A stretch of 64,000 nucleotides of DNA, from the NCBI GenBank assembly GCA_001662655.1, contig KV460239.1; one strand, 5' to 3'. Positions within the stretch are counted from its first letter, which is position 1. Each line of letters starts with the position of its first letter. Position numbers and translations under genes: made by a program. This document shows positions 11,427-61,084 of this stretch, in pieces. A model generated the notes under the pieces. The model was given only the letters and a program-made list of their open reading frames with translations, made no database searches and had not been told where the DNA came from. The DNA is from Pseudogymnoascus verrucosus. Its lineage: Eukaryota.

Positions 11427-11463
11427 NNNNNNNNNNNNNNNNNNNNNNNNNNNNNNNNNNNNN
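11427..11463. other. Assembly gap (37 N) flanked by poly-G
   Basis: N run in the sequence. Confidence 1.
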
Positions 11464-11859
11464 NGGGGGGGGGGGGGGGGGTGATGATGGTAGGAGGATC
11501 GGAGATGACAGCAGTAGGGCTGATGGCAGCAGAACTAACGGCAAAGATTGGCGTCATGGCCACCCATCGACGCGTTCTCCAGGAGAGCGAATAGGAGAGG
11601 GGTCGGGGATTGTGAGGTTGACGAGCCCACTCTCAAATGCTTGATCTGAGTTCTTAGGAAGTAGACGAGTATATGTGAAGAAATATAATTCTACGGGAAC
11701 AATACAGGACACCTCCTTCCTTCGAGATATCACCGTCAGTAGCGACCCCTCCCCCTCTAACAGAGACTCCTGCGCAACGCTTCTCCGGGTCACGGTTACG
11801 ATGCCCCTTTCCCACAAAGATCATTGTCAAGCAACGCCTCCTCAGAATCTAACATCCAT

Positions 11860-13003
11860 TTACTCCAAAGTCGGAACATTCTCCTTCACCGTATCCTCCA
11901 AACTCACCCATCCGGGTCGCCCGTAGTACTCGCGCAGCACCTCCGCGCCACGCTCAGTCGGCACTCCCATCCCACTGAGCTCCGCTCCAGGCAAATCGTC
12001 CACGAAATCCTTCTCGGGATACAAGCGCCTCAGGATGGCGAGGATCTGGTTCCACGTGTATGGCGCTGCGGACGCATAAATGCGCTCATTGCTAATCGAC
12101 TTGCTCAGCAGCGCTGCGACGTGGATGCGTGCCGTATCCACCACATTCACATACCATCCTGTCCACATTAGCTTACTTCCAATAGTTTTTACACGAATAC
12201 TCACCAGGCGGCAATGACTTCACAAACTCGACATTCGACTTGGTAGCAAAACCAGTGATCCAGCCACCCGTGCTCAGCCCGCCTGCCGGGTTCAGCGCCG
12301 GCCCGAAATTGGCATCTGGCAACACCGCATTCACCTTGAAGCTCGGCTTCTCCTTCTCGGCGAACGCCCACAACGCCTTCTCGGACTCAGCCTTGCTGGC
12401 GCTGTAGACGGCGTTGGGGTGGCTAGGTGGGAAGGGAGCAGAGGTGACGCTCCAGGCCTCGGCGATGGCAGCTTCATTCCAGGTGCTGGTAGTAACCTCG
12501 AAGGAGTGGTTATCCGGAGCGGGGTTGCCAGCGGCGACGGAGCTGGAGGTCAGAACGAAAGATTTGACGGTGGAAGAAGTGGCGGCGGAACGGAGGAGCG
12601 AAGTTACGCCGCTGATGGTGTCGGGGATGACGGCCGCGGGGTCGGCGCTGAAGGATAGGACGGAGGCGGGGTGGATTATGCCGTGTACGCCTGGGCGTGT
12701 TAGTTGGGTATTTATTCACCAGAATGAGGGGGAATTACCCTTGACGGCATCATCGAATGCCCCGTCAACTGCCATATCTGGCACCACCACGGCAGAGTAT
12801 GTTCCAGCCTCGTGGCGGGAGTTGAAGACTTCGGTCGTCCAGGCGGCTTTGGCGGCGTCACGAACTGTTCCCCTTACGTGGTAACCGGCTAGGAGGACCT
12901 GGTCGACAATGTGGCTTGCGATGTAGCCATTGGCGCCGGTGACGAGGACGAGGGAGCCCTTTGGTAAGGAGGCGTCGGCGGGGGAGAGCTGAATGGTAGA
13001 CAT
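11860..13003 (-). CDS. NAD(P)-dependent epimerase/dehydratase family, aldehyde reductase II / GRE2-like extended SDR
   Basis: Rossmann motif LVTGANGYIASH, VRGTVR, catalytic TSSS and YSASK, NFGP, VNVVDTARIHV; three exons across ORFs 12716-13003, 12173-12373 and 11860-12204. Confidence 0.9.
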
Positions 13004-13677: not shown

Positions 13678-14040
13678 GGGCTTCCGGTTGGAGGTTCGGT
13701 CATCAACAACACAAATTGTCAGCGAAACGGGTACACTTCCACGTTTAAGCACGACATAGAAAGTACGAGGTTATGATATGATATGAGGGATAAAAATATT
13801 TGGGTTATGTTTTGAGATGGGTCCAACAGGTTTAAATGACTTAACTCGCATACACGACGTTCATTGGCAAACGGCAAAGCCAGTGTAGGGGCTAAACCGG
13901 GCTTCCGGTTGGAGGCTCGGTCATCAACCAGACGAATTGTCAGCGAAATGGACACACCCCCACGTTTGATCAGGTACGAAGTTATGATATGAGAGATAAA
14001 AGAAGATTCGGGTGTGTTTCAAGATGGATTTAACATACTA
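13678..14040. repeat. Degenerate direct duplication of about 140-150 bp (copies start about 13678 and 13899)
   Basis: Both copies begin gggcttccggttggagg(t/c)tcggtcatcaac..aattgtcagcgaaa and continue ..ccacgttt..gtacga(g/a)gttatgatatga. Confidence 0.85.
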
Positions 14041-14639
14041 ACTTGATGTCGTCGTTTGTCACGGACAGCAATTCGTGGCGCGAAATCTGAATATAGACAC
14101 CATCCCATCTTTTCAACGCCCTCAGCCATATTCATTTGTGTTGCTTAGAACGAGAAACAAGAATATCACTACAATAACAATTATTATTTTCTAATTCCGA
14201 AGCTGTATTGCATGCTGTGATGTCAGCTTCGATCCTGGAAGATCATTGGAGTCTTAGCGTTACACAATGTGGGTTGGCTTCCCGCACGGGTGAGGATTTA
14301 GCAACGTCGTAGCGTTTGAGGTGATTAACGGCCAGGTCTTTGCTTCATTCGAATTAAGCACCGTATATGCCGCCTACGATTATTAATGGCCAAAATTCGC
14401 CTTCTGGCTTCTATGATTGGGTTTATGCGGGCGACGGTGACAGTGAGAGACATATGGGGCTGCGAGGATATTGAGGACATACAGGAAGCGGACAAGGGTT
14501 GGCCAGGGATGGTGGTTCCTTAACACGGTCATTCGTTTGATAGCATGATACCCAACCCCGGGAATCATTTGCCCATTCAAGCTGAACATTTAAACATTTG
14601 AATAATTCGTAATAGTAATACACCTCCACATATACGCTT

Positions 14640-16281
14640 CTAAATATGGTATTTGAAATCCAACTCCCAGTCTCCTGTCTTCACCTTCCTCGTATCCTCA
14701 ATCTCGCCACTTGCAATCTTCGCCTTCTTGGCCGTGCACCTCTTGATATAAACGGCCTTGCCCACAATCAACACTTGCGATAAACAGAGGATACCCAACG
14801 AGAATCCGTGGCCCAACTTATAGGGTGCTTTTCTGTAGATTTGTCCAGCCACAACTCCGGCAACATTACCCATCGACTGTTGCATGCCAATAGCGGTTGC
14901 GCGGCGGTAATGAGGCGCAATGTTTACGTTGAGCCATGCAACGTTGAGACCTGGGCCTGTGTAGACGGCAATGGCGCACAAGAAGGTGGCGAAGAACTTG
15001 ACGCTGTTGTTGGATACGAATAGAAGGAGGAGGTAGCCGATGATGCCGAAGATGTTGGCAAAGAAGATAAACTGCGACATATTAGAAATGCCAACAATGA
15101 AGGAGTGGCCGACTTACTGGACTACGGAGAGTCATCTTGTCAGAGATGTAGGCGAAACTCATGAAGCAGAGACCACCGAAAATGTAAACGGGGATTGTGA
15201 GGTATTGAGTCTGGAGTGTCGAATGCCCCATCTCCTTGAGAATGGCTGGCAAGAAGGTGCTGAAGCCATACAGAAGGATGTCTTGGCAAAATTGAATGGC
15301 GCCGCTGTTATATGGTCAGTCTATGTTGCCTCTGTATAGTTCCGTACAAACTCACCTGACATAAACCTTTGGATCTGTGGCGGCTATTTTAACCTCATCC
15401 CAACTAAAGTCCTGGCTACCGCTGTAGGCCTTGTTTCTCTCATATCGGATAGCCATAAACTCCTTCTGCTCCTTGCTCAAGAAGTAGGCATTTCCTGGAT
15501 CGTTTGGGAGACCGAAGAACACAACTACAGCGCAGACCACACTGAACAGACCCTCGATAATATAGATCCATCTGTAATAAAATATCAGTGACAGCCCATT
15601 GCGCAAGAAAGCTCGACTAACCTCCACCCTTCAAAGCCGCCAAGGCCATCCATGAACAGGATGACATATGCAAGGAGACCACCGAAAGCACCAGAAAGCG
15701 CGGCGCAGACAAACAAGTACGAAACACGCTTTGCTTGCTCATCTCTCTGATAGACCATCGTCAAGTACAGATTCAAACTGGGAAACAGACCAGCTTCGCA
15801 GGCGCCGAGAATCAATCGCGTAGCGTATAAAGAAGCAACGTTGTGAATGAATCCCGAGAAGATGGTGGCGAGTGACCAGATAACACACAGCCCGGTAATA
15901 ACATAACGAGGCGTCAATTTCTTCAAGAGGAGAGCAGATGGCGTCTCAAATGTAACGTAGGTGGCATAGAAGATGGATACAGCGATGGAGAACTGCGAGG
16001 GACTTGCACCAATGGTCTCTGGCATACCAGCTACCCCGACATTGCCTGGCTTAAGTCAGAAAGGGGTAATTTCAAGGCCTTCAAGGAAACACACCAATGT
16101 TTGAACGATCCAAAAAGCAGCAAAGGTAGACGAGCATAATGACTGGAATAAGACATAAGTCTAGCTTTGCCAGCAGCTTGACCTGCTTGGCTGGGTCGAT
16201 GTAGTGGTCATCGCGGGATTCGACCTGGCTATCGGAAACCTTTGTTTCGAGGGGCAATTCCTTTTCCTCGATGGAACCCAT
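14640..16281 (-). CDS. MFS transporter, allantoate/nicotinate permease (DAL5/TNA1, ACS) family
   Basis: MGSIEEKE.. start at 16281; motifs KLDLCLIP..LCCFLDRSNIGN, RLILGACEAGLFP, SGAFGGLLAY, GWRWIYIIEG, P..RRATAIG; several GT-AG introns. Confidence 0.92.
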
Positions 16282-16908
16282 ATTCAATGGTATGATGAAT
16301 GGGCGAGCGAGTGTAGAGTCAATGGTATTCAAAGAATGATAGACTGTTCGTGGCAAAGTTGATGATATTTGTCACGCCAACCGTTGGCTAGACCTTGTCA
16401 TATATAAGAGTTTGCGGAGGAAATGATAAAGAAAAGGATCGCCATGCTTTCCCCCACAATTCCCCGCAAATCTCCACATCTCTCCATGCGCCTCCCTATC
16501 TCGTGGTTGAGTTATCTCTTTCTAGAGGTTTTTCGGGCCCGCCCTAACAAGAGATCGGGATCTCATACCGAGCCTTATCGCCACTCTAACGCTAGTCTGA
16601 TATCGACTAAACCATGTCGATCAGGAACAGAAGATTGGCTAAAATATAACGTGGCAGTATTGATTGGCCGAAATTTTTACATTTGCGGGGTTCAACGTCA
16701 TGCGTACCTTATCGCGTCGCGGACCTTTTTCCGTCGTGGCAAGGCTGTTCGTAGTCGGCGCCGACAGAGGAGACTATCACGGTAACTCGGTTGAAGAGGC
16801 ATGATCACTGGGGGAATCACCATCAAAGTTTACATTGCTCATCCCTAGGCCGAACCGCCACTCTCGGCCTACAATGCCCGTCGATATCTCAAGGAGCCAT
16901 CGATCGGA

Positions 16909-19342
16909 ATGTCATCTATACCAGAGTCGGGGGGGCACATAAGGCGGGCACCCATCGCGTGAGGTCTTTCCAGGAACGTTTTGCTTGACACATACTGAGT
17001 CGTAGCAGCTGCAATAGATGTAGAAAACGAAAGACGAAATGTCTGGGTGGAGTTCCTTGCAGAACTTGCGCCATATCAAGACAAGATTGTATCTATCCAA
17101 ACTCGCAGAAGAAGGTGTTGGTCTCGGAAGGGTGGGTGTCTTCATTTCCATCTCTAGCGTTCAGTTATGCTGAACTTTAATAGTTACCTCCTTGACCTAG
17201 AGGCTCGAATCAAAGCGTATGAGACCAAGGCCGAAGAAGCCTCAGTGACTCCAAGCTCTGTCGCTGCCACATCTGAAATACTGGATGCCGAAAGCGTTAC
17301 CGCGGAATCCTCTGCTCCTCTTCAACTTACCATCAGTCGTGACACTGACAAGGATGATATTGATAAGAACCCACTGATTGAAGGGACGGCGCATCTTGTG
17401 CTGAGCCCCGGAGGAGGAGAGCGCCGTAAGTACTGCAGCACAATATATGAGAATAAGGCTTATAATATACTAGAGTATCTCGGGGATTCGTCGTCCACAA
17501 GTCTTGGATTGAGGTTCCAGGACTTTATTAAAACCTTTCAGTCAGAACTCAATAACGTAGTCGAGTTCGATGCGCCCACCCAAAGCCGTACGAATTTCTC
17601 CATTCGTCGTAATTCGTTTCAGGACGGCCAGCCCAAGATCTCGCTGCCTCCTTTCGCATTCGCAAAGCGTCTCTATGCCGCACAGTATGCCTATCTTGGG
17701 ACCATCTTCTCCTTCACAGATATGGATCTGTTCGAAGAGAGCCTGCGTGAAATATATGATAGGCCGGTGGATGTATCCGACAAGGATGATTGCCTTGTCT
17801 ATTGCGAAGTACTGCTCACGTTGGCCTTTGGTCAAATGTACTCTGTCAATCAATGGACAAGCAACGATGGACCTCCTGGATTTGAGTATTTTCAACAAGC
17901 AATGCAGCTGCTTCCGGGTCTTCATGAGCAAGGATCTGTGACATTCATCAAAGTTCTATCCCTGGTTGGATATTTCTTCCAGAATCTGAATCGTCGAGAC
18001 GCAGCATTTCTCTATGTAAGCCACAGCCCCCTTTCGTGTAGTACTGGCTAATATAGACAGATTGGCTTGGCATTGCGTATGGCCATATCAATGGGGTTAC
18101 ATCAGGAAGTCCCCGATCAGAATCTCGACGACAGGGCTCGAGAACATCGGCGGCGACTGTGGTGGTCTGTGTACAGCATGGATAGGTAGGAAGACTGTCA
18201 GGTTGTTAAATGCCTGCTAATATTCCCAGGATTCTTTGTGTCAAATCTGGCAACCCATTGACAATTGCCGACCAGGACATTGGAGTTCTGCCTCCGTCAA
18301 GACTGGTAAGTTTCAAATTCACACACAAAACCCTTACTAACCAAATCAGCCCGACGAACCTGAAATGTGCCCAGCTACCGTCCTGTTACATTATACAGAG
18401 CTGTCACGAATACTAGGAAAGATAATGATAAGTAAGTTATCCTTGGCTCTCGGAAGTACGAAACTAACTATGAAAGATCTATATCGAAGGACACGCACAG
18501 AAAACTACAGTCTTGTCAGCTCTGTACAGGCCATTCTTACTGACTTGTCGAATTGGCACACAAACCTTCCTCAGGTGCTTCATTTTGACTTTACTAAACT
18601 TGACAAGGAAATCTCTCGTGAGGCGGTTTCGATATATCTACACTATTCGCAGTGTATTAATATGACTGCTCGGCCGCTTGTATTCCACGTTGTTCGAAGC
18701 CAGCTTCAAAGCAAAGAATCAAAAAACCACACAAGCGATTGGAACACTGGACTGTCTCCAACTACAATAGCAGTCATTGATACCTGCATTTCAGCAGCAC
18801 GGAATAGTATTGCAATCATGTCTACAGCTTCCAAACAGAATCTGATAGGTAAGACATGCAAGTCGCATTCTGAATTACACAATCTAACATAACTAGCAAC
18901 GTACGGCTACATGGATGGCGAACACGCTTTCTCGGCGGCAATCATCCTCGTCATGGTCAATATCGCCTTCCCGTACAACGCCCGAGACCGCGCTGCCATG
19001 AATATGGCGTTAGAGGTCCTGAATGGAATTGCCGACAAGGGCAATGCGCATATCAAATCATTGCATCGACTTCTGCTTAGCTTATACCCTATGACGAGAT
19101 TGGAGAATTCCGATGAGTCTGTGATCCAGAAACAAGCTCCAGAAGCTCTTGCACCACAACCAGATCCATTCGCAGCATTCTTGTCGCAGATAGATGGCGA
19201 CAACGCCAACGCTGGCATATTTTCCAACATAGATACGAATTTGTTTGAGGCAGCTGGCGCGGGAGACGAAAGGATTTGGGAGGAGGGGTTTGAATTTTTT
19301 GATGCGAATATGGATTTTGATTGGACACAGTGGAACAGCTAA
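16909..19342 (+). CDS. Zn(II)2Cys6 transcription factor with fungal-specific TF (Fungal_trans) domain
   Basis: Spliced N-terminus MSSIPESGGHIRRAPIA|CNRCRKRKTKCLGGVPCRTCAISRQDCIY (six Cys); middle region IGLALRMAISMGLHQE..RRRLWWSVYSMDR; acidic C-terminal tail. Confidence 0.9.
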
Positions 19343-20190
19343 ATCTTCTCGACGACATCATCTTCCATCACATCTATCACTAACATATGCCCTGGGGCAT
19401 GTCCCATCACTCGACCCGGCAATTGCGCCTTCATAACCGCAAGCTGGGGCGTAACACCACATCCCCAGAATACTGGTACAATCTCGTCGTCCGCTGGGTC
19501 AAGATCCAGCGGCATATCACCAAACTCGGGTGCATTGATATCTTTGATCCCCAACTTCTCCACCGCATCCCAGCCCCATGCAACAGGCTCGCCATGGGTG
19601 CTTACATACGGCCTCGTCAGCTCCCGAACCTTCTCGACATCCGCCCTCCTGTACGGCCGCATGCTGACCACGTAAGTTCCGCCAGTAAACACGCCCGCAG
19701 CGCAGAGCGGTATATTCGTCGCATACATGGGGACATTGCGGCCCATGGCCGTATGCCTCGGCGGCAGACCAGCTGCTGTCAAGGCGGCCTCAAAACTGTA
19801 GCTGCAGCCTATAAGGAATGCGACGTGGTCATCCGTCCACTCCTTAGCAATATCTGAGCAGTGTGACTTGACCAGCTTGCCATCGTCATATACCATGTAT
19901 AATGGGACGTCTGTGCAAATATCAAGCGCTGACGCGATCGCGGCATCAGAGATTCCAGGCAAGTGAGACTTCAGGGCCGTGGCGGACCCTGGTGTGCGTG
20001 AAGAGGCGAGTAGTGGGCATGGGACTGGGTTGCGATGACACAGAAGCAGAAAGTCGGATGCGAAGCGGGAGGGTAGGATAATTAAGTTTGCTTGCAGATA
20101 TTTAGGGGCGAGACCTGATGTCAGGGTTATTTTATTGTTGCGAGCGAGGAGGCGGGTTGAAAGAGCTGCATTATTGCCGGATTCGATCAT
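19339..20190 (-). CDS. DUF1445/UPF0317 putative hydro-lyase (D-glutamate cyclase / B. subtilis YcsI-like), intronless
   Basis: Family motifs TSGLAPKYLQANLIILP, FLLLCHRNPVPCPLL, DICTDVPLY, FLIGCSYSFE, NVPMYATN, VVSMRP, HGEPV, PVFWGCGVTPQ, HAPGHMLVID. Confidence 0.92.
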   Translation of the reverse strand: MIESGNNAALSTRLLARNNKITLTSGLAPKYLQANLIILPSRFASDFLLLCHRNPVPCPLLASSRTPGSATALKSHLPGISDAAIASALDICTDVPLYMVYDDGKLVKSHCSDIAKEWTDDHVAFLIGCSYSFEAALTAAGLPPRHTAMGRNVPMYATNIPLCAAGVFTGGTYVVSMRPYRRADVEKVRELTRPYVSTHGEPVAWGWDAVEKLGIKDINAPEFGDMPLDLDPADDEIVPVFWGCGVTPQLAVMKAQLPGRVMGHAPGHMLVIDVMEDDVVEKI

Positions 20191-20897
20191 TTTGAGGGTG
20201 AAGAAACAATATGCACGTAGCTTTCAATACAAAGTCCTGTCAAAGCATATATACATAACTATGCCGAGAAGTTAGGATATCCACATCTCCTCTCCCCGTC
20301 TATGCCTCCGCTGCCGGCCCCATGGCACCGGACTCTTTCCGCTGAATCGCACGAGACAGTATACAAATTTTGGCTTAATCATTTATCATTTGCGGGGATA
20401 AAAGTGCGGGTCAGGAACGCCCGAGGAAAATCTACTCCAGTTTTTTATTCCGCTGTGATGGTTGTTATACCCCGTCCGCCCTTCCATGGTACGCGGCCGG
20501 CCGGAGACCGTGCCGCCCTAGCGCGATCGGCTTCAGATCCCGATCGTAAATGTCCACCTCGTCATGCATTTGACCCCTCCGATGGGATATGCCCACGTTC
20601 TCCCCGCAATTCAACTGCCAAAGAAGAACTCGTTTGTAACCGGAAGCAACTGTAAGTGTAGTATTCGCCCGTTTCGTGGGTCTCTTGTGGCAACCCGGTA
20701 TCAGGATCCGATCATATGGTGCCGGAAGTTATGTTGCCGGAGCTTGCGTGCTGATGGTGACCTTAGGTGATTAGTTATAACTTAGCCTCTCCCCCCGCAC
20801 CCCATATTTCAGTACATGCCATTAAATCTTGTTTTCTTGTACTCTCTTTGATTGTTCTGCCCGACTGTTTTTTAGATTCCATATTATACCCCTCAAC

Positions 20898-23800
20898 ATG
20901 ACAGTGGGACAACACCAGCCAGCGGCCGGAAGGCTACGGATATCCATCGATCGCGGTGGAACTTTCACCGATGTCCACGCCTCGGTGCCTGGCCGCAGCG
21001 ACATTATCTTGAAGCTGTTGTCCGTCGACCCTGGAAACTACCAAGATGCCCCAACCGAAGGCATCAGGCGAGTTCTCGAAATCGCGACAGGCAGGACCCT
21101 GCCCCGCGGCGAGTTGCTCGACTTAACCCCAATCGAGTCCCTGAGAATGGGAACGACGGTTGCTACCAACGCATTATTAGAGAGAAAGGGTGCTCGCTCA
21201 GCACTCCTCATCACACGCGGATTCAAGGATCTGCTGGTCATTGGAAACCAATCACGACCAAACATCTTCGATCTCTCAGTCTCAAAACCAGACGTGCTGT
21301 CTGAAAAGGTTGTTGAGATTGACGAGCGCATCACACTCGAGGGATATGCCGAGAACCAAAACCCCGAACCTATTGAGGAGTCGGAAGATGTTGTTCGAGG
21401 AATTACTGGGGAGCATGTGCGAATTATCACCAAGCCGGATATGGAGGCTGTAAATGCACAGCTGCTCCAGTTGAAGGAAGAGGGATACAGGTCGATATCG
21501 GTTGTCCTACTTCACTCATATACCTACCCCCATCACGAAAATTTGATCGGGAACGCAGCTGTAAAGATGGGCTTCTCAGTTGCCTTATCATCGGCCCTAC
21601 AGCCTATGATCAAGGTTGTTCCCCGTGGAATGAGCGCCACGGCAGATGCATACCTCACACCAGTTATCAAAAACTACATCGACTCGATCTCTTCAAACTT
21701 CCAAGGCGGTCTTGCCTCGAAGACCACCCGAGTCGAGTTCATGCAGTCGGATGGTGGCCTTGTTGATTTCCGCAAATTTAGCGGACTGAAGGCGATCTTG
21801 TCTGGTCCAGCTGGTGGTGTTGTTGGCTATGCCCAAACTTCATACGATGCTGCCGAGAAGGTTCCTGTTATTGGCTTCGATATGGGAGGAACTTCGACTG
21901 ATGTGTCGAGATATTCGGGCACATACGACCACGTATTTGAGACCACAACAGCTGGCGTGTCTATTCAATCGCCACAATTAGATATCAACACCGTTGCAGC
22001 AGGCGGTGGATCCATGCTCTTCTGGAAGAACGGCCTGTTCGTTGTTGGCCCCGAGTCCGCATCAGCCCACCCTGGGCCGGCATGCTACAGAAAGGGCGGA
22101 CCTCTTACAGTCACCGATGCCAATCTCTTCCTAGGCAGACTCCTACCCGAGTACTTCCCAAAAATCTTCGGCCCCAACGAAAACGAGCCTCTTGATGTGG
22201 CTATCACGGGAGAAAAGTTTGCTGAACTTACTGCCGTTATCAACGAGGAACAGAAGTCAAACGGACGCATCGAATTTACCCCTGAGGAGGTCGCTCTCGG
22301 TTTCTTGAATGTTGCCGATGAGTCTATGTCGCGCCCTATCCGAGCATTGACTGAGGCTCGTGGCCACAACACTGCGGTTCACAACCTTGCTTGCTTTGGT
22401 GGTGCTGGTGGCCAGCATGCATGCTCTGTGGCTGCTGTTCTTGGTATTTCCAGAATCATCATTCACAAATACTCTTCTATCCTCTCTGCTTACGGAATGG
22501 CATTGGCGGATGTGGTCAACGAGGTTCAACAGCCTGCTGCTGATGTTTTCAACGACACAACTCAAGACATGTTCCAGTCGAAGCTAGAGGCGCTTGTTAA
22601 GCAGTCCACAGAAGACCTAGAGTCTCAAGGATTTGCAGGCAAGGATATCCACCATGAGCTGTATCTGAATATGCGTCATGCTGGTACAAGCACCTCTTTC
22701 ATGATCCTCAAGGGTGGGGATTGGAACTTTGCTTCCGAGTTTGAGAAGAGGCATCTGATAGAATTCGGCTTCTTGACAAAGGATAAGGCTATTCTTGTCG
22801 ACGATATTCGTGTCAGGAGCACTGGTTCTTCATCTCACGGGAAGGAGAAGAGCCCTTACATGCAGGTGAGTCAAAGTATCCCTTCGAAGACGAACTAGCT
22901 AATAGATACGTAGATGAAAGAAGTTGTGCCAAAGAAGGTTTCCGAACAGAAGAGCCAAGGAATTTCCAAGGTTTACTTCGGTTCATCCAAAGGATCCGTC
23001 GACACTCCCATCTACAAGCTTGAGGATCTTGAGGTTGGCTCACAGATTAAGGGCCCTGCAATGATTATTGATAAGACTCAAACCATTGTCCTTGTTCCCG
23101 AAGCTGTGGCGAATATCCTCGAACGATGCGTATTGATCGATCTGAAGGAGAAGCCAAATGTTGATGTTACTTTCGAATCTATGGATACGAGCATCAACCC
23201 TATCCAGCTGTCCATTTTCGGCAACAGATTCATGTCGATTGCTGAGCAGATGGGACGAACTCTCCAAAAGACCTCCGTTTCCACCAACATCAAGGAGCGT
23301 CTCGACTTTTCTTGCGCGTTATTCTCTCCTGATGGAGGCCTGGTCGCCAATGCACCCCACGTTCCAGTGCATCTTGGCTCCATGCAATTTGCCGTCCGAT
23401 ACCAACACAAGTACTGGGCTGGAAAGCTCGTGGAAGGCGATGTTCTCGTCTCAAACCACCCAACATGTGGAGGAACTCATTTGCCAGATATTACTGTCAT
23501 TACACCCGTATTTGAGAATGGCGAGATTGTCTTTTACGTTGCATCCAGAGGACACCACGCAGATATCGGTGGTTCCCTCCCTGGATCGATGCCTCCGACT
23601 AGCAACCAGCTGTGGCAGGAGGGTGCTGCCATTGAGGCAGAGAAGCTCGTTAGCGGTGGTCATTTCAACGAGGAGAGAATGATTGAGTTGCTCCTGAAGG
23701 AGCCCGCCAAGTTCGAAGGCTGCTCAGGAACTAGATGCCTCCAAGACAACCTGTCTGACTTGCGCGCCCAGGTAGCAGCAAACCAGAGAGGAATCTCGCT

Positions 23801-24881
23801 CATCAATGGCCTGATCAAGGAGTACGGCTTGAAGTGCGTCCACAACTACATGTACGCGATCCAAAGCACGGCCGAAATCGCTGTCCGCGAGCTCCTCAAA
23901 TCGACCTCAGAGAACCTCGGTTCTGTGTTGGAAGCAGTAGATTGCATGGATGACGGAACTCCAATCGCGTTGAAGGTCACCATCGACGCCGCCAAGGGCG
24001 AGGCCATCTTCGACTTCGCCGGAACTGGCAGTGAAGTATTCGGCAACACCAATGCCCCTACTGCGATCACACACTCCGCAATCATCTACTGTCTACGTGC
24101 GCTCATCAAATCCGATATCCCGCTCAACCAGGGCTGCCTGAACCCGATTGACATCCGCATCCCCGCCCACTCTCTCCTGTCGCCATCGAAGACCGCTGGC
24201 GTTGTGGGTGGAAACGTGCTCACCTCCCAGCGTATCACCGACGTCATCCTGAAGGCTTTCCGCGCCTGCGCCGCCTCGCAGGGCTGCTGCAACAACCTGA
24301 CCTTTGGCACAGGCGGCAAGGGAGAGGACGGAAACCACGTCGACGGCTTCGGTTACTACGAGACAATTGCAGGTGGTGTTGGTGCCGGCCCTACTTGGGA
24401 CGGACAGAGCGGTCTGCACACCCACATGACGAACACGCGTATCACGGACCCGGAGATCTTCGAGAAGCGATACCCATGTATCCTGCGCGAGTTCTCGCTG
24501 AGAGAGGGCTCTGGTGGCGTCGGTCTGCACCGCGGTGGCGATGGCGTAGTTCGCGATATCGAGTTCCTGGTCCCGGTTCAGTGCTCTATTCTGTCTGAGC
24601 GCCGCAGTCATCGCCCGTACGGGTTGGAGGGCGGCGGGCCGGGTGCTCTGGGCAGGAATGACTGGGTTAGGCAAGGCGAGGATGGCGAGAGCAGAGTCAA
24701 CCTTGGAGGAAAGGCAACGGTCAAGATGGCCAAGGGTGATAGGATCGTGATTAACACGCCAGGTGGTGGTGCTTGGGGGTCTGAGACTGCAGAGAAGGTC
24801 AAGACGAATGGTGTTCAGAAGGAGGTATTCGTCGCGAAGGGGTCGGTCGATCGTTATAAGACGAGACAGGAGACGAATTAA
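20898..24881 (+). CDS. OXP1: ATP-dependent 5-oxoprolinase (hydantoinase A + B fusion)
   Basis: [101 protein letters not shown]; one 48-nt intron at 22866-22913. Confidence 0.97.
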
Positions 24882-26093: not shown

Positions 26094-27143
26094 TTACAAG
26101 TGGATATAGTCAAAGGTGCTAGCCGGCACCGTGCGCGTGCTGTACCCCTCCACATTCACATAGTTGTACTCCTCAATAGTGACCATATCGCCCTGGACAG
26201 CCGCAACCCACGCAACATGTCCCGCTCCCCCACCGCCGGCATTAGTATGCGCAATAGCTCCCGGTACCGGCTTGTTATCAACCAAGACGCCGGTCTGGCG
26301 AGCAGCCTCGTCCCAGGACTCGGCGTCACCCCATGCAGCGCCCTTGTACTTGTTGTGGAAGTTGAGACCGAGGCGGTCGTTGATGCGCCACGCGACGAAG
26401 CTGGTGCACTGGCACGCGTAGTAGTACCAGCGGTCGACGTCGCCGCAGGTGCTGGCGCCGTAGGGGTAGTCGTTCTTGATTTCGCCGGCGTCGCCGTGGT
26501 CTGGTGGGGTGGGTGCTTCGGGGAGGGAGGCGGCGTCGCACTTGGGCTTGACGTACGTGATGGAGCCGGTCTTGACATAGAAGTCGGAGACGAAGCAGCC
26601 GTCAGACGTCAAATCCCAGATCTCGTTGCCGTTGATTTTGGTGCCAGGCGTTTGGCAGGTGATGCTCACGATGCTGCCCTTGGCGAAGGTCTTCTTGATG
26701 GGGAAATCTGTGCCGGGACCAGAGCGGCAGTTGACGGTGTTTCCAGTGATGGGATAGGGGCCATCAGGGTTGCCGCTTGGGACGGGGACGTCGGTGGGGC
26801 CAGCCTCGGTGGGAGAGGCGTCTGTGGGAGAGACATCCGTGGGAGCAGCCTCGGTGGGGGAGGCATCATCTGCGGAGGAGGTGGCTGTAGGAGCAGCGTC
26901 CGTGGGCGAGACATCCGTGGTGGGGACGCCCGTGGGAGCAACGTCCGTGGGGGAGACGTCAGTGGCGGTTGGGAGAGAGCCGTCGGTGGCGACGCAGGTG
27001 TTGATTGTGACATAGACGGTGCTGCGGGTTGAGGTGGGCACAGGGGTGTCACAGGTGACGACTGTGACATAGACAGTGCTGCGGGCCAGGACAGACGTGG
27101 AGAGGATGGCCGCCGAGGCGGCGGCGATGTTGGTGAGCTTCAT
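26094..27143 (-). CDS. Secreted SH3-like cell-wall-binding + CHAP domain peptidoglycan hydrolase, intronless
   Basis: Signal peptide MKLTNIAAASAAILSTSVLA; Thr/Pro linker; SH3-like VNCRSGPGT..VSITCQTPG..WDLTSDGCFVSDFYVKTG; CHAP motifs QCTSFVAWR, WGDAESW, PVPGAIA, GHVAWV, IEEYNY. Confidence 0.9.
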   Translation of the reverse strand: MKLTNIAAASAAILSTSVLARSTVYVTVVTCDTPVPTSTRSTVYVTINTCVATDGSLPTATDVSPTDVAPTGVPTTDVSPTDAAPTATSSADDASPTEAAPTDVSPTDASPTEAGPTDVPVPSGNPDGPYPITGNTVNCRSGPGTDFPIKKTFAKGSIVSITCQTPGTKINGNEIWDLTSDGCFVSDFYVKTGSITYVKPKCDAASLPEAPTPPDHGDAGEIKNDYPYGASTCGDVDRWYYYACQCTSFVAWRINDRLGLNFHNKYKGAAWGDAESWDEAARQTGVLVDNKPVPGAIAHTNAGGGGAGHVAWVAAVQGDMVTIEEYNYVNVEGYSTRTVPASTFDYIHL

Positions 27144-28196
27144 CACGAGCGACAACGAAGGAGTGTGTGCTATAAAACAAAAACAAACACAATAAACGAG
27201 CGTGGTGACTATGCGAGCTAGTCAGCGAAATGAGGGTGGTGGTGGAGTGAGAAGCTAGAAGGGGGCGGGACGGGTGTCTATATACATCACATGAAGCGGA
27301 GATTCCTCCGGCGGTCTTCATTTCTTACTTTTTTCATTCTAGGCCGTATTCATACACCAATTCGGCCTTGCACTAACCGGGTACCTTGCAGATTTAAGGG
27401 GCCATCTGGGGCGGTTGACTGGAGGGGAATAGCGCAAGGCGAAGCTGTAGGGCTGGTTTAATGTCGGTTCAGCGTTATGGCGCTGTCAGGTCCTGTCAGA
27501 CGGACGAACCTAATGCCCATCTCACCGTCAGTCGGAGCTGCGCCCGGGTCGGGGCGTCGCTTAGAGTCCTGACAGTGGTTAAAAGGGTAAAAAGTGGCAC
27601 TTCGCTTGGAAGGGTTGGCGTTGTGCCCCTGAGCTAGCGTGGGCTAGTGCGTGGTGGGGGCGGCGTGGTGTATGGGATGGCGTCGACTCACGCAAGATTG
27701 GACTACACCGCGCCGTTTGAGGACATTCTGGAGTGTTGCGATGGTGTCATTGAAATGGGTTGAATTGGAGTCGTGCTTGCCTTAGTGTTGTAGAAGTAAG
27801 GAGAAATGTGTAAAAATGAGCGTTGTGGAAAGAGCGTATTGAGGCAGGATGAGTTCTCATGCGCCAGTGCCGTGACCGATGTATTGCGTGAACAGCTGAA
27901 TTTTGTGGGGTCGGCAGGGGCGATGGGGCTTGGATCTTCTTGGGTCTGCCTGGGTGCGGGGATGAGCATGCTTCAGAAGGTTATGAGAGGTTCTGGGATG
28001 TGAAAGGGATAGGGGATTTACTGTGAGGGGGTGGAGGCGTGGGGGCGCCTGAGAGCGATGGGGGATGAGTGGCGGAGGGAAGGAAGAGATTTATAGATTT
28101 ATAGCCACATATAATTCCATAAATAGCACACAGTGATGTATTATTTGAACTAAAGTACATTATCCAGTCTCTGCCATTGTTTTGCTACTACTGTCG

Positions 28197-36880: not shown

Positions 36881-37885
36881 ATGACGGGATAGCGGGAGGG
36901 ACTGGCGATCACTGGGACGGGTTACATGGGGATCATGTTGGGATGGAATGGGGAGGCATAGGAGGCGTTTTTGGCTGGCATGCTTATTTGGTTGGGTCAT
37001 GAGCGGACTGTATGGCTTTAGCAGACTGGCGATAGCGGTCATATCAGCTAGCGGTGAATATATGATGGGTTATTGTACGTTTAGAGTGGGAAAACGTGAA
37101 TGTAATCATAGTTATCACAGCATCGGCGGCATCGGCGATATGCATTGAAGTTGTGCCGCCCTCTTATTATCCACCGACATCCTCTGAAATTCCAATCCCC
37201 AACTATGTGCTCCATGACGTGATAACCAACGACCCTTTTATAGCTTCAAATAAGAAAATAAGAAAATAAGATTATGTGTGGTCGCCACGATTTTCCTATG
37301 GGTGAGCGATTATTGTGATAATAGTCCCTGCTCTCGACCAATCAGAAAATCGCGAAATACGATTTACCAACGATTTACCAGACCCCGATTCCAGGCGAGC
37401 GAATTAAGGCGGCCCATTCGGACTCGGAACCCCGTGATCCGCCGAGACCCTTATCGTTGCTGGTAGAAGTGGATGCCCAAGCAACACCGACGACGGGAGA
37501 CGAAGATAAGGCTTGTGACTTTGTGGGGAAGGCAACTCCGCATTTATTTCTATCCACAGCTAAGAGTACACAGCCACTATTGGGTAGAGCAGGACTGTAA
37601 CGTATTATCGAGCCTCGAGGATTGTTTGTTCACTCTAGACTTTATTTCCTCCTCTACCAAAATACACTCATTGCTACTACGCACCTGCCTCTTTGTGACG
37701 AACCCCCTCATTTGGCAGACCCCGAACTTCGCAGAGATAGGATTTATGCTGCGAAGTCCACCTGTGAGAGCACGCGATACCTCGTCCTCGGCGCCCACAC
37801 TCACCTGCGTAACGTCGCACAGCACAATGGGCGCGCGCCCCCTTGCCTCATCCACGACGACGACGACACCCTCGCCCAGCGCGCC

Positions 37886-40635
37886 ATGAACTCGCCCCCC
37901 TCACCACGCGCCGCCAAGCGTGCGCGCACCTCTCCCACCTCCCCCCAATCCCCGCGCACCCTCGGCCCAGTCGCCGAGGCATCCCCCGACCAGCCCGCCG
38001 CGAAGACTACGGGTCAGAGCAGCAACTTCCGCAATGTGAGCGCGTGCAATCGCTGCCGTTTGCGCAAGAATAAGTGTGATCAGCAGCTGCCGAGTTGCGC
38101 GAGCTGCACGAAGGCTGGTGTCAATTGCGTGGGATACGACCCGATTACGAAGCGGGAGATACCCCGGAGCTATGTCTTTTTTCTTGAGGCCAGGGTGGGA
38201 TATCTGGAGGGCTTGCTGGGGGAAGCTGGTGTTCCGTTCGAACCGCCTGAGACGCTGGAGTTAGCTTCGAGGCCGGGACCGGAGCCTAATACACAGAAGG
38301 GAGATGACGATTCGAGTTCGAACCAGGGACCAACGGGGAGACGAGGGACTGGATGGAGCGAAAAGCAGGAGGAGGAAGACAAGCTGGATAATTTAGTGTC
38401 TAATGTAGGCATGATATCGGTGCAGGGTGCTTCAGACCCGCGATACCTCGGCTCGACGAGTGGCATCTCGTTCGCGAGGGTTGTGTTTGCAGCTGTCAAG
38501 AGCTCAGTGTCGTCGGGCGCGGAGAAGGGCGGTGCGAGGGCGCCGGCGGCAAAGGCGGGGCCTAGCGGGACATCTATGCGGGACTCATTTTTTGGGCTTC
38601 AAACTAAACCGACCATCAAGCCGGCGCCATTCCCAGACCGCAGTTTGGCGCTGCGGTTGATGCGTTTCTACTTTGAGCATGCGAATCCGCAGATCCCGAT
38701 CCTGCATCGCGGGGAGTTTATGAAGATGTTTGACCTAGTGTATGGAGACAGGAATCATGTGCGCACACCGAGGGAGTCGTATATAATGAACATTGTGTTT
38801 GCAATCGGTGCGGGGATATACCTGGGGGATCCTAATACGGAGCCAGACGCTCCTCCAACTGATCCGGCGCCCAATACGAGCGGGCTCGGGGCGGCTAATA
38901 GGCAGTGCCAGCCGGAGGAGTATCATGCGTCGGCGATTATGCATTTAGAAGCGTGCCTGCAGTCTACAGGGACGGCAGACAAACCAGAGGGGTTTGGCGG
39001 GGGGTTAGAGGAGTTACAAGCTGTTCTCCTGCTAGCTGGGTTTGCGCTGTTAAGACCAGTGGCGCCGGGGTTGTGGTATATCACCGGTGTTGCTGTGCGC
39101 ATAGCACTAGACCTTGGTCTGCACTATGAAGACGGGAAAGATATTGACACTGGACTTCGCGAGCAGAAGGCAGGGAAGACCGGAAACGGCGAACCAGAGT
39201 CATACTCTCGCGAGAAGGGAAGACGGGAGTGGATCCGTGACTTCCGCCGGCGCCTCTGGTGGTGCACATACTCCTTCGACCGGCTCGTGAGCACCTGCGT
39301 CGGCCGCCCCTTCGGTATCTCCGACCAAGTAATCACCACATCCTTCCCCTCCCTCCTCGAAGACAAATACATAACTCCGCACGGCTTTCTGACCGAGGGC
39401 GCCCACGAAACCTCTAGCAAGCACGTCGCACACCACTACTTCCGCTTCCGCCTCCTCCAGTCTGAGATCCTGCAGGTCTTGCAGCACCAACAGGCGCAAG
39501 CCGTGCGCGCCACATCCGCAGACCCGTGCAACCCCTTCCTACCGGCACAGCAGGCTTCGCCATTCCTCGCGCCGTTCGGATCTTTCCGCGCGTGGCGCCT
39601 GGATATGGACGGGCGGCTGTGGGCGTGGAAGTCGGCGTCGCCGACACGACGCGAGACTGGTGTGCAGTTCTCGCATGAGTTCTTGGAGCTGAATTACTGG
39701 CAAGCGGTGCTGATGGTGTATCGGCAGAGCCTGAGCGTGCCGGCACAGTTTGCAGAGGAGTTTGATGGCGCGGCGGAGGTGGGTGCGGGAGCGGTTGGCG
39801 AGGGAGAGGAGGCGGTGTTTTTGAAGGTTGCGGAGGCGGGGCAGAGGGTGTTGAGGTTGTATTGGAGGTTGCACCGTGTGCATCTTGTTAATTATACGTT
39901 CCTTGCTACGCATCAGCTGTTTATGGCGGGGATATCATTTCTTTATGCCATATGGCATTCCCCGACTGTGCGAAGTCGACTGGTAAGTCCATCACGCCCC
40001 TGAATGAAATTTAAGCTAACACCACGCGGACAATGGATGAAGTCGACTTCAACATCCTCGCTGCGACCTCCGTCCTCGGTGACCTCGTTGAAAAATGTCC
40101 CCCTGCTGAAGCATGCCGTGACGCCTTCGACCGCATGGCTAAGGCCACAGTGCAGATGTGCATGTCAACGAGCAGCCTATCCGCCGCTCCCGGGCTAGTA
40201 CCACTGCGTGCACCGGATGCACCAGCCGCGACGCCAGCGCCGAGGCCCAGGCTGCAGTTTGGGTCGCCTGGGGATTTATACACGGCGAGCCCGCCGAGCG
40301 GAGGAGGAAACTCGGGGGGCGTCAAGAGTGAGAGCACTGGAGGGGAGGCTGAAGCGCCGAGGGGGCATGTTCTGGATCCTTCGATTATTCCTGGTGAGGA
40401 GAGAGAGAGTTCGTTTCTGGGAGACGGAGGGATGGGGGTGGAGAGTGGAGATACATATGGAGGATACGGGGACATGGGGATGAGCGAGATGAACTCGATG
40501 GAGTATCTCGGGGATGGTGGGGGCGGGCTGGAGCTGGGATTTGGGTGGGGTGCGGATGGAGAAGGGCACGATTTTGGGGATGGGGCAAACCAGCTGGACT
40601 TTTTTGATGGGTTCTACTTTGGGACTGGGGTTTGA
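37886..40635 (+). CDS. uaY: Zn2Cys6 positive regulator of purine utilisation (UaY/Ppr1 family); intron acceptor is anomalous
   Basis: FRNVSACNRCRLRKNKCDQQLPSCASC..VGYDPITKREIPRSYV, YLGSTSGISFARVVFAAV, RRRLWWCTYSFDRLVSTCVGRPFGI; second exon MDEVDFNILAATSVLGDLVEKCPPAEACRDAF. Confidence 0.88.
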
Positions 40636-59375: not shown

Positions 59376-59971
59376 GATGATGATTTGGACGAAATATACT
59401 CTGTGGGGTTTTTGATAATGAAAATAGAATAGGAAAGTGGCTCAAAGGTATTTATGGGGACAGTTATATATCTATTTCCAAGAAATATCGCGCTGCTTAC
59501 TCGAAATCAGGCTGTGGAAGCAGCCTGTAATGGTTAAACAATATATAAACGGAAGAATTTAAAACTGCCAGTTCTATACCTGGGTAGATCGACAACTTTA
59601 TAGATGATGCTTATGCTTCTCAGTAGCCTGTTTAGTGTGATGAAACTGCCGGATATCAACTTTATATTAACGAAGTAACCTTGTTTGGTTGAGTTTCAAG
59701 GCTAAGCGGCGGGCGGCACGGCGTGCCTCCGCACGGTGGTTCCGGCAATTGTTTTCTCAGATTGAGTGGACCGATCAGTGGGATCCACGGACGATATCTA
59801 CCCCGCCATACTCTAAATCGCACCGCAGTCAACAAAACACATTCGGACCATTCGGATGCCACTCATTCCGTACTGGCTCTTGGATAATAAATACTGAGGT
59901 ATTATAGTATTTATACGCCAATATTTGTTTATGCAATTTTGAAGGCTTTTTCCTGTTCGGATCCCAAAACC

Positions 59972-61084
59972 ATGCCCTCAGACCAGAGATCCACATATAC
60001 CAATCCAGATGCCAAAGCGTACAATCTCCCTGAGCTTGCCGATGCGCAAACGGTGAGGAAATTTCACGAGAGTCTGCCAGAATACAGCCCTACTCCCCTC
60101 GTGTCTCTTGGGGAGCTGGCAGAAAAGTTTGGAGTGAAGAGTATCTTCATCAAAGATGAAGGAAATCGGTTGGGACTCCCGTCGTTCAAAATCCTTGGCG
60201 CCTCTTGGGGAACATTCCGAGCAATAGCGTCCAAGCTCGATCTTTCCCTTGATAGTAGCCTTGATGATCTCTCAGAAGCTGCCAAAAATGCATCCATCAA
60301 ACTATTCGCTGCCACGGATGGAAATCATGGACGGGCCGTTGCATACATGGCAAAGCTTCTGCAAATATCAGCTGAGATATATGTCCCAACGGCTGTAAGC
60401 AGCCATGCTCGGGAATTGATTGCTGCAGAAGGCGCTGAAGTGATTGTTATTCAAGGCGACTACGACGATTCCGTACGTATTGCTGCTGAAAAATCAACCA
60501 CGTCACCCAGTGGGCTTCTGATCCAGGACATGGCTTTTGAAGGATACGACTATATCCCGTCTTGGATTGTTGATGGATACTCTACGATGTTGCATGAAGT
60601 CGGTTCTCAGCTCGAAGAGAAAGGGTTAAAGCCCACAATCATCATCACGCCAGTTGGAGTGGGCTCCCTTGCAACAGCCGTCGTCACTCACGCCAAGTCC
60701 GGAGGGCGTTCGATTACCATACTTGCAGTTGAGCCCGATACCGCAGGATGCCTTCACACCAGCCTGAAAGCTAGTCAAATGACCCCCATCAAGACACCCG
60801 GGACTATCATGACGGGCCTGGACTGTGGCACGGTCTCAACTGCTGCTTGGCCAGTCCTCCGGGCTGGTATTGATGCCAGTGTCACTGTCTCCGATTCTTC
60901 GTGCCATGATGCAGTGCTGTATCTGACGAGGCATGGCATTTTTCTTGGGCCATGCGGTGCTGCTGGTCTAGCTGCACTCTTGAGCATCGGGCCTACGGAA
61001 CCTGAGTCTATCGGACTAAATTCGGACTCTGTGGTTGTCATCTTGGGCACTGAGGGGCCCCGGCCGTATTTTGACAGCCTTTGA
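59972..61084 (+). CDS. PLP-dependent diaminopropionate ammonia-lyase family protein (fold type II), intronless
   Basis: FHESLPEYSPTPL, KDEGNRLGLPSFKILGASW (PLP Lys), ATDGNHGRAVA, IQDMAFEGY, GYSTML, VGVGSLA, TIMTGLDCG. Confidence 0.88.
   Translation: MPSDQRSTYTNPDAKAYNLPELADAQTVRKFHESLPEYSPTPLVSLGELAEKFGVKSIFIKDEGNRLGLPSFKILGASWGTFRAIASKLDLSLDSSLDDLSEAAKNASIKLFAATDGNHGRAVAYMAKLLQISAEIYVPTAVSSHARELIAAEGAEVIVIQGDYDDSVRIAAEKSTTSPSGLLIQDMAFEGYDYIPSWIVDGYSTMLHEVGSQLEEKGLKPTIIITPVGVGSLATAVVTHAKSGGRSITILAVEPDTAGCLHTSLKASQMTPIKTPGTIMTGLDCGTVSTAAWPVLRAGIDASVTVSDSSCHDAVLYLTRHGIFLGPCGAAGLAALLSIGPTEPESIGLNSDSVVVILGTEGPRPYFDSL

Follow-up and report, generated by a model that had tools for sequence, protein, structure and literature searches.

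DUF1445 (UPF0317) is a widespread protein family for which two crystal structures have been solved, and its stand-alone members have no established function. As reported, Bacillus subtilis carries the family member ycsI downstream of ycsG in one operon (PMC10448178), and the mouse protein DGLUCY (D-glutamate cyclase, EC 4.2.1.48; C14orf159/9030617O03Rik) converts D-glutamate to 5-oxo-D-proline; this activity was measured on the whole DUF1445+DUF4392 protein and, in the available text of the report, is assigned to neither of the two domains (PMC5339696). In wine yeasts, Region B brings together a transcription factor (TF; B24), an OXP1-like 5-oxoprolinase (B25), and a permease of the TNA1-like or galactonate type (B26) (PMC13447093). 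Moreover, bacteria are proven to use pyroglutamate as a nutrient, for which they have dedicated importers (PMC13274462, PMC11485210). In this study, we analyzed a 64,000-nucleotide stretch of contig KV460239.1 from Pseudogymnoascus verrucosus (assembly GCA_001662655.1), hereafter called the window. Positions 14640–24881 of the window carry four complete genes in two divergent pairs, namely a major facilitator superfamily (MFS) permease (−) with a Zn2Cys6 TF (+), followed by a DUF1445 gene (−) with the gene of a 5-oxoprolinase of the OPLAH/OXP1 type (OXP; +). The linkage of DUF1445 and OXP in fungi is far beyond chance, and we read the four genes, at a probability of about one half, as a nutrient cluster that is induced by its substrate, serves the use of exogenous pyroglutamate, and relies on DUF1445 for the D-series.

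The conservation of the cluster was examined on metagenome contigs, which were scanned with a profile built from 16 fungal DUF1445 proteins. The scan gave 372 pattern matches, 245 of which encode a relative; the best 80 of these 245 loci were kept, and the four window proteins were placed on them by tblastn. Loci were called eukaryote-like on the basis of open reading frame (ORF) density and identity, and the 46 loci so called formed 35 groups after DUF1445 sequences at least 97% identical had been merged. The taxon labels given to metagenome loci are guesses from the best named matches. OXP stands beside DUF1445 in 9 of the 35 groups; the MFS permease does so in 13, and TF orthologues (44–92% identity) do so in 10. 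All three partners were found by tblastn in five groups; additionally, L009, L037, and L038 carry a more divergent Zn_clus/Fungal_trans gene recognized by Pfam, so that the four gene kinds occur together in 8 of the 35 groups. Most of the remaining groups lie on contigs too short to judge. Eight of the 35 groups have 7 kb or more on each side, and OXP is present in five of these eight.

Three gene orders were observed: that of the window (OXP<- ->DUF <-TF ->MFS), one in which the MFS/TF pair is inverted, and one in which OXP lies beyond the TF. Among the other window ORFs that reach 120 aa, none is matched in any of the eukaryote-like loci, L002 included, whose DUF1445 protein is 83% identical; the sole match of window ORFs from outside the cluster is a 24% PALP (pyridoxal-phosphate enzyme) match to the bacterial-like locus L068. 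Thus, the four genes stay together as a unit even as their order and surroundings shift between groups.

In named genomes, adjacency was read from consecutive locus tags of the matches to DUF1445 and to the C-terminal half of OXP. Such neighbors occur in Pseudogymnoascus sp. WSF 3629 (OXP VE00_08908, DUF1445 VE00_08909), Emergomyces pasteurianus (AJ78_06925, AJ78_06926), Onygenales sp. PD_40 (FQN55_005349, FQN55_005348), Arachnomyces sp. PD_36 (FQN54_003696, FQN54_003695), and Saitoella coloradoensis of the Taphrinomycotina (YB2330_004844, YB2330_004845). Among the metagenome loci, L003 and L004 show 98% identity to Aureobasidium pullulans, and L009 shows 78% identity to Xylaria and Ilyonectria proteins. 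L037 and L038, both of which carry TF, MFS, DUF1445, and OXP, are intron-less with 41–43% G+C, and in L037 GAL7- and GAL10-like genes (15261–18078) directly follow the TF-MFS-DUF1445-OXP block; for these reasons, both loci look like budding yeasts. A PALP gene adjoins the cluster in the Sordariomycete-like L009 (16170–17444, −), and the PALP gene of the window lies 35 kb away from the cluster. The inference of the earlier note on this DNA that the DUF1445–oxoprolinase linkage exists with the eukaryote-type enzyme is thus borne out (nine of 35 groups plus five named genomes), and a synteny search of the kind it suggested found OXP, MFS, and TF co-located with DUF1445.

Both bidirectional promoters of the window contain CGG-N9-CCG elements with a common core. 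A pattern made from the three sites of L002 has three matches in the 64-kb window at one mismatch or fewer, against 0.14 expected, and all three lie inside the two divergent promoters, at the sites listed in Table 1. Reciprocally, the pattern derived from the window has three matches in L002 (0.05 expected), all in its two divergent promoters; the TF/MFS intergenic region of L002 holds two CGG-N9-CCG sites. An extended element, ATGATCGGAK-N7-CCG, occurs once in the window (20696–20715; 0.01 expected) and once each in L002, L003, L004, L006, L007, and L045, in every case in the OXP–DUF1445 intergenic region; since the pattern was read off these same sequences, its count is only descriptive. Zn2Cys6 factors usually target inverted CGG repeats, and the TF of the cluster may bind the CGG-N9-CCG elements.

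Published expression data on other fungi also bear on co-regulation. The Schizosaccharomyces pombe homologues of DUF1445, permease, and OXP are co-regulated in two array studies: high copper specifically represses nine genes, which include SPAC5H10.01 (DUF1445 protein), SPAC11D3.18c (permease), and SPAC11D3.15 (PMC1929147), and SPAC5H10.01 and SPAC11D3.18c are lowered when klf1 is deleted (PMC3805531). Both SPAC11D3.15 and SPAC11D3.14c carry the annotation 5-oxoprolinase (PMC5983419, PMC12610034). In Aspergillus fumigatus, deletion of gprK lowers the DUF1445 gene together with nitrogen-source transporters (PMC5008803).

OXP matches, in order, the Pfam profiles Hydant_A_N (2.8e-53), Hydantoinase_A (1.9e-103), Hydant_A_C, and Hydantoinase_B (5e-213), and thus has the architecture of eukaryote-type OPLAH/OXP1 enzymes, a single polypeptide of ~1300 aa with HyuA followed by HyuB. 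It is 99% identical to a Pseudogymnoascus protein; its C-terminal half shows 69–81% identity to fungal proteins named 5-oxoprolinase, 55–57% to insect proteins of the same name, and 54% to an aphelid protein, the names in the fungal and insect comparisons being annotations. Based on the identity to the insect proteins, OXP looks like a canonical ATP-dependent 5-oxoprolinase. Animal-type 5-oxoprolinases are L-specific according to the enzymology of the Meister era. The nearest NCBIfam models are caprolactamase subunits, and OXP scores far under their cut-offs. A FastTree phylogeny of 56 C-terminal halves, a quick method, gave no distinct cluster-type clade of OXP: linked and unlinked genes are intermixed, and the tree departs from the species tree.

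The DUF1445 protein matches the full Pfam profile D-Glu_cyclase (PF07286; 4.5e-57, 1–143) and aligns over 100% of its length with an annotated 283-aa Pseudogymnoascus protein at 99% identity. In HMMER searches, residues 7–276 match the bacterial structures 3db9 (1.6e-56) and 2pif (1.7e-53). Its AlphaFold model (predicted local distance difference test score of 82) superposes on 2pif with Z 28.0 and a root-mean-square deviation (rmsd) of 2.6 Å over 250 aligned residues at 44% identity. Collectively, it is a stand-alone protein of the UPF0317/YcsI type ("putative hydro-lyase"). Against NCBIfam NF003969, a model built for prokaryotes, it scores 270 bits, under the equivalog cut-off of 324. Among 4724 scored candidates, 3229 relatives were found at E ≤ 1e-10, and in a quick tree all eukaryote-like DUF1445 sequences form one clade (SH-aLRT 100).

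In 38 diverse homologues, which include fungal, bacterial, and fused proteins, Gln33, Asn35, Asn54, Cys129, Glu134, Arg178, His199, Cys244, Gln249, and His264 are conserved without exception, and Cys58 is kept in 37 of the 38. In the predicted model, Cys129 and Cys244 each lie in a "G-C" motif at a strand-to-helix junction. No fold of the Asp/Glu racemase, DapF, or proline racemase type was listed for the model in a wide fold search or in a Foldseek search of the PDB. The best match beyond the UPF0317 structures is the NrpR-like 3nek (Z 8.6, rmsd 4.4 Å, 171 residues aligned), and further matches are of the generic PII/ferredoxin-like kind (Z 5–6). The ESM Atlas gave no usable match outside PF07286. 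With respect to internal duplication, global hhalign comparison of the halves found nothing; a local alignment of the two halves superposes both "G-C" motifs at a weak E of 0.014 and 3% probability.

A search for longer DUF1445 relatives returned 33 proteins, many of which are DUF1445+DUF4392 fusions, with the domains in both orders. P0305 (1473 aa) and P0307 (1491 aa) consist of a complete OPLAH followed by a C-terminal DUF1445, and over about 1280 residues this OPLAH part shows 43% identity to the OXP of the window. Additionally, P0304 joins HyuB to DUF1445, and P0308 joins a PxpC-type carboxyltransferase domain to DUF1445. In P0292, DUF1445 is fused to a LysR regulator; P0310, from Rhodotorula araucariae, combines half of DUF1445 with the middle of OXP and is perhaps a merged gene model. 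The Rhodotorula chimera hints at adjacency of DUF1445 and OXP in a basidiomycete.

In 27 bacterial-like loci, a scan of 4 kb on either side of DUF1445 found importers and regulators as its companions. Branched-chain amino acid (BCAA)-type ABC importers occur in L043, L047, L057, L058 (partial), L060, L064, L065, L069, L071, and L073; TRAP importers stand beside DUF1445 in L049, L068, and L078, and NRAMP proteins in L048 and L063. LysR regulators lie next to DUF1445 in seven loci. An oxoprolinase is near DUF1445 in four of the 27, as PxpA+PxpB in L049 and as the Hyu/OplAH type in L050, L058, and L065. DUF4392 is found in the near-identical pair L051 and L056. The two NRAMP loci share a further string of genes, DUF1445-NRAMP-M24 peptidase-PALP, with the PALP gene at 11663–12940 (+) in L048 and at 13714–14991 (+) in L063.

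The permease matches Pfam MFS_1 on one exon (1.2e-17). Its best NCBIfam match, TIGR00893 (2A0114, a model of the anion:cation symporter or ACS family, TC 2.A.1.14), reaches 92 bits on one exon, under the 395-bit cut-off of this bacterial model; the yeast-like orthologues, at 168–188 bits, are likewise under it. The TF matches Zn_clus (2e-8; 34.6 bits, cut-off 21) and Fungal_trans (4.4e-11; 42.8 bits, cut-off 23) in Pfam and contains the pattern CX2CX6CX5CX2CX6C.

To explain these observations, we favor the following model. The putative ACS-family permease would import the lactam-carboxylate anion, putatively pyroglutamate, and the Zn2Cys6 factor would bind CGG-N9-CCG in both promoters and switch the four genes on together. 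OXP would open 5-oxo-L-proline to L-glutamate at the expense of ATP. DUF1445 may interconvert D-glutamate with 5-oxo-D-proline, with a presumed direction and stereochemistry; because cellular free D-glutamate is low, its step could proceed to ring opening with no need for ATP. In this way, the imported lactam in its D-form, or D-glutamate from bacterial debris, would also be processed via DUF1445. The ties of DUF1445, by neighborhood and fusion, to two unrelated types of 5-oxoprolinase, to importers, and to regulators, in bacteria and in fungi, support a module centered on 5-oxoproline and glutamate, on which the reading of pyroglutamate as the probable substrate is based.

Several points weigh against this model. 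Its weak point is that, if DUF1445 makes D-glutamate, no gene of the cluster consumes it; in L009, L037, and L038, the ORFs scanned around DUF1445 (150 aa or longer, up to 7 kb away) include no D-amino-acid oxidase or racemase. Because L-pyroglutamate alone needs only the permease and OXP, the role of DUF1445 is one that we infer. The permease family is broad, and OXP may be the sole housekeeping copy of the cell. In Pseudomonas putida, homologues of both oxoprolinase types use other lactams (bioRxiv 10.1101/2021.12.09.472016). Moreover, OXP and DUF1445 are reported from contigs of different length in Xylogone and Ilyonectria robusta, and three of the eight well-flanked groups are without OXP, L017 having only MFS and TF and L024 and L039 no partners. 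In the quick DUF1445 tree, L017 is sister to L009, and L024/L025 fall inside the core clade; because unlinked genes are nested among linked ones, the unlinked cases read as secondary break-up of the cluster and not as a separate paralogue.

Four other explanations were considered. In the earlier note, the permease was thought to import D-glutamate, DUF1445 to cyclize it to 5-oxo-D-proline, and OXP to open this to L-glutamate. The Pfam family name, the conserved DUF1445–OXP pairing, and the activity of mouse DGLUCY (PMC5339696) favor such a route, but ring opening leaves the Cα uninverted, so that D-glutamate would be regained. Cyclase and oxoprolinase catalyze opposite directions of one reaction and would therefore run a futile, ATP-burning cycle on one enantiomer. 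OXP looks canonical and resembles animal enzymes that are L-specific; with an L-specific OXP the two steps are unconnected, and an inversion step is therefore needed to reach L-glutamate. In addition, the cyclase activity is known only for the whole mouse protein, with neither domain singled out in the available text of PMC5339696, and DUF4392 was not matched at this locus: PF14336 had no match among the window ORFs scanned, and tblastn with a single bacterial DUF4392 query, which limits sensitivity, gave only chance matches, none with an E below 0.36, whether in the window or in the fungal loci. We consider this route very unlikely. What holds of the earlier note is that the four genes form a conserved unit in which a permease and a TF accompany the DUF1445–OXP pair; its D-glutamate-to-L-glutamate chemistry is unsupported as it was written. 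It is similarly improbable that the genes serve housekeeping metabolite repair, with OXP as an enzyme of the glutathione cycle or of damage control, DUF1445 clearing a D-form by-product, and permease and TF as incidental neighbors. A canonical OXP would suit this explanation, as would the spontaneous formation of 5-oxoproline in all cells (PMC13274462); however, the linkage of permease and TF persists across the three gene orders, the same element stands in both promoters, and bacterial DUF1445 genes are accompanied by importers and LysR regulators. The S. pombe permease is also co-regulated with DUF1445 and OXP (PMC1929147) and, in a second study, with DUF1445 (PMC3805531).

The missing inversion would be supplied if DUF1445 were a cofactor-independent 5-oxoproline racemase using its two invariant cysteines, so that imported 5-oxo-D-proline would become 5-oxo-L-proline and then, through OXP, L-glutamate; DUF4392, where present, would be the true D-glutamate cyclase, and the whole an ATP-driven, one-way conversion of D-glutamate to L-glutamate. 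The four genes would then be self-sufficient for import, inversion, ring opening, and regulation, and both the frequent DUF1445–DUF4392 fusion and the tie and fusion of DUF1445 to two unrelated oxoprolinase types would be explained. The invariance of Cys129 and Cys244, their placement in two "G-C" motifs at strand-to-helix junctions, and the weak superposition of these motifs (E 0.014) agree with a two-cysteine mechanism. However, the fold resembles neither Asp/Glu racemases nor DapF/ProR, the best match outside UPF0317 being 3nek, the half-against-half alignment has 3% probability, and three invariant cysteines plus histidine could equally form a metal site. We know of no 5-oxoproline racemase activity on record. 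Mammals, moreover, carry the DUF1445+DUF4392 fusion and yet make 5-oxo-D-proline out of D-glutamate, which product they excrete in larger amounts than the L-form (PMC5339696). A racemase thus seems doubtful, although it remains the likeliest of these four alternatives. Less likely still is a cluster that acts on another lactam or cyclic amide, of the 2-pyrrolidinone, 6-oxopipecolate, or hydantoin-like kind, with DUF1445 as a hydro-lyase on it or on what is made from it. It would parallel the lam locus of Aspergillus nidulans or the Pseudomonas lactamases, and ACS permeases transport many organic anions; the nearest NCBIfam models of OXP are, far under their cut-offs, caprolactamase subunits. 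Enzymes of the Hyu/Opl and Pxp types have indeed diverged to butyrolactam, valerolactam, and caprolactam (bioRxiv 10.1101/2021.12.09.472016; PMC8453981). On the other hand, OXP is highly identical to animal and fungal proteins named 5-oxoprolinase, DUF1445 is tied to Pxp-type oxoprolinase and importers in bacterial-like loci, and the only assayed DUF1445 relative acts on glutamate/5-oxoproline (PMC5339696).

The gene models were assembled by hand from ORFs and splice sites read in the sequence, and the spliced products of the four genes contain no internal stop codons. The window is fungal in character, with short GT-AG introns and a G+C content of about 50%. As the earlier note had described, with correct end coordinates, the four genes are contiguous and each divergent pair shares a promoter; all four are intact. 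The features are collected in Table 1.

Table 1. Features of the cluster and of its surroundings (window positions)
Feature	Position	Strand	Details
Putative ACS-family (TNA1/DAL5-like) MFS permease gene	14640–16281	−	ATG 16281; 5 exons; 481 aa
MFS exons	16281–16095, 16045–15622, 15571–15356, 15304–15118, 15071–14643, plus stop	−	splice sites read
Bidirectional MFS/TF promoter	16282–16908		627 bp; one CGG-N9-CCG at 16556–16570
Upstream ORF before TF	16874–16942		ATG 16874; 22 codons
Zn2Cys6/fungal-specific TF gene	16909–19342	+	ATG 16909; stop 19340–19342; 8 exons; 702 aa
In-frame TF intron (inferred)	18432–18476	+	45 nt
DUF1445 gene	19339–20190	−	single exon 20190–19342; stop 19341–19339; 283 aa
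Bidirectional DUF1445/OXP promoter	20191–20897		707 bp; CGG-N9-CCG at 20528–20542 and 20696–20710
OPLAH/OXP1-type 5-oxoprolinase gene (fused HyuA-HyuB)	20898–24881	+	1311 aa
OXP exons	20898–22865, 22914–24878, plus stop 24879–24881	+	ATG 20898; one 48-nt intron 22866–22913
Assembly gap	11427–11464		38 N
CHAP-domain ORF	26097–27221	−	5.8e-16
Second Zn2Cys6/Fungal_trans regulator gene	37601–40000	+	adjoins CDC45
PALP gene	59891–61081		

The TF and DUF1445 genes run toward each other and have overlapping stop codons at 19339–19342, so that their 3' untranslated regions must overlap as well. In L001, the two genes are likewise tail-to-tail, with an 8-bp gap. The short upstream ORF listed before the TF lies in another frame, overlaps the predicted TF start codon, and may be a translational control element of the TF. 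The second Zn2Cys6 regulator gene of the window has no relation to the cluster. Two flanking genes, one encoding a CHAP domain and one NAD-epimerase-like, were considered as members and excluded, as neither has a counterpart in any locus; for the CHAP gene, 1.2 kb past the OXP stop, this includes even L002. CHAP is a bacterial-type peptidoglycan amidase/peptidase domain, and its placement beside a putative D-glutamate/pyroglutamate cluster is suggestive; given that no related locus has a counterpart, it is probably coincidence.

The findings extend the tie between DUF1445 and 5-oxoprolinase from bacteria to a conserved, apparently co-regulated eukaryotic cluster. Since carriers such as S. pombe and Aureobasidium are genetically easy, the cluster offers a tractable handle on an uncharacterized enzyme family. 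The pyroglutamate model would also explain the recurrent module of OXP, permease, and TF, including Region B of wine yeasts, and bears on the use by soil fungi of pyroglutamate and D-glutamate released from bacterial necromass. If the doubtful racemase activity were real, fungi and many bacteria would possess an irreversible route from D-pyroglutamate to L-glutamate; with DUF4392 as the cyclase, D-glutamate from bacterial cell walls would be convertible too, and this pathway would have its minimal complete form in the four-gene cluster of fungi.

Compared with known systems, the cluster shares its central features with the bacterial YcsI loci, in which DUF1445 adjoins a 5-oxoprolinase, an importer, and a dedicated regulator; the operon shared by ycsI and ycsG in B. 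subtilis, which the earlier note had named as a precedent, is one example. In contrast, the fungal genes are separately transcribed, bear introns, and are arranged as two divergent pairs. A putative ACS-type MFS permease stands in the fungus where the bacterial loci have TRAP, ABC, or NRAMP importers; the regulator is a Zn2Cys6 factor instead of a LysR protein, and the enzyme is a fused eukaryote-type OPLAH, unlike those of the bacterial loci. DGLUCY, the sole assayed member of the family, shares PF07286 with the fungal protein. However, DGLUCY is mitochondrial and combines DUF1445 with DUF4392, whereas the fungal protein is a 283-aa stand-alone DUF1445 and is closer to bacterial UPF0317 proteins (3db9, 1.6e-56; 2pif, 44% identity).

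The S. pombe genes SPAC5H10.01, SPAC11D3.18c, and SPAC11D3.15, together with oxp2 (SPAC11D3.14c), resemble the cluster in comprising DUF1445, a TNA1-like permease, and 5-oxoprolinases, and from their systematic names and cosmid order these genes are presumably physically adjacent. The lam locus of A. nidulans consists of the divergent genes lamA and lamB, one of which encodes an OXP1-type lactam hydrolase, and permits growth on 2-pyrrolidinone as a nitrogen source. As in the cluster, an OXP-type gene belongs to a divergently transcribed pair; the partner of lamA is LamB (PF03746, PxpA family), whereas that of OXP is PF07286, and PF03746 had no match among the window ORFs scanned. In Region B, one block combines a TF with an OXP1-like gene and a TNA1-like permease, so that the resemblance suggested in the earlier note is correct by gene content; as listed, Region B has a flocculin and a second TF and is without DUF1445, unlike the cluster, and the words "oxoproline" and "pyroglutam" are absent from the available text of its report (PMC13447093). 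The literature searched yielded no paper that ties a fungal DUF1445 to oxoprolinase or pyroglutamate. The bacterial form of the DUF1445–oxoprolinase linkage has already been seen repeatedly; what is new here is its eukaryotic gene-cluster form.

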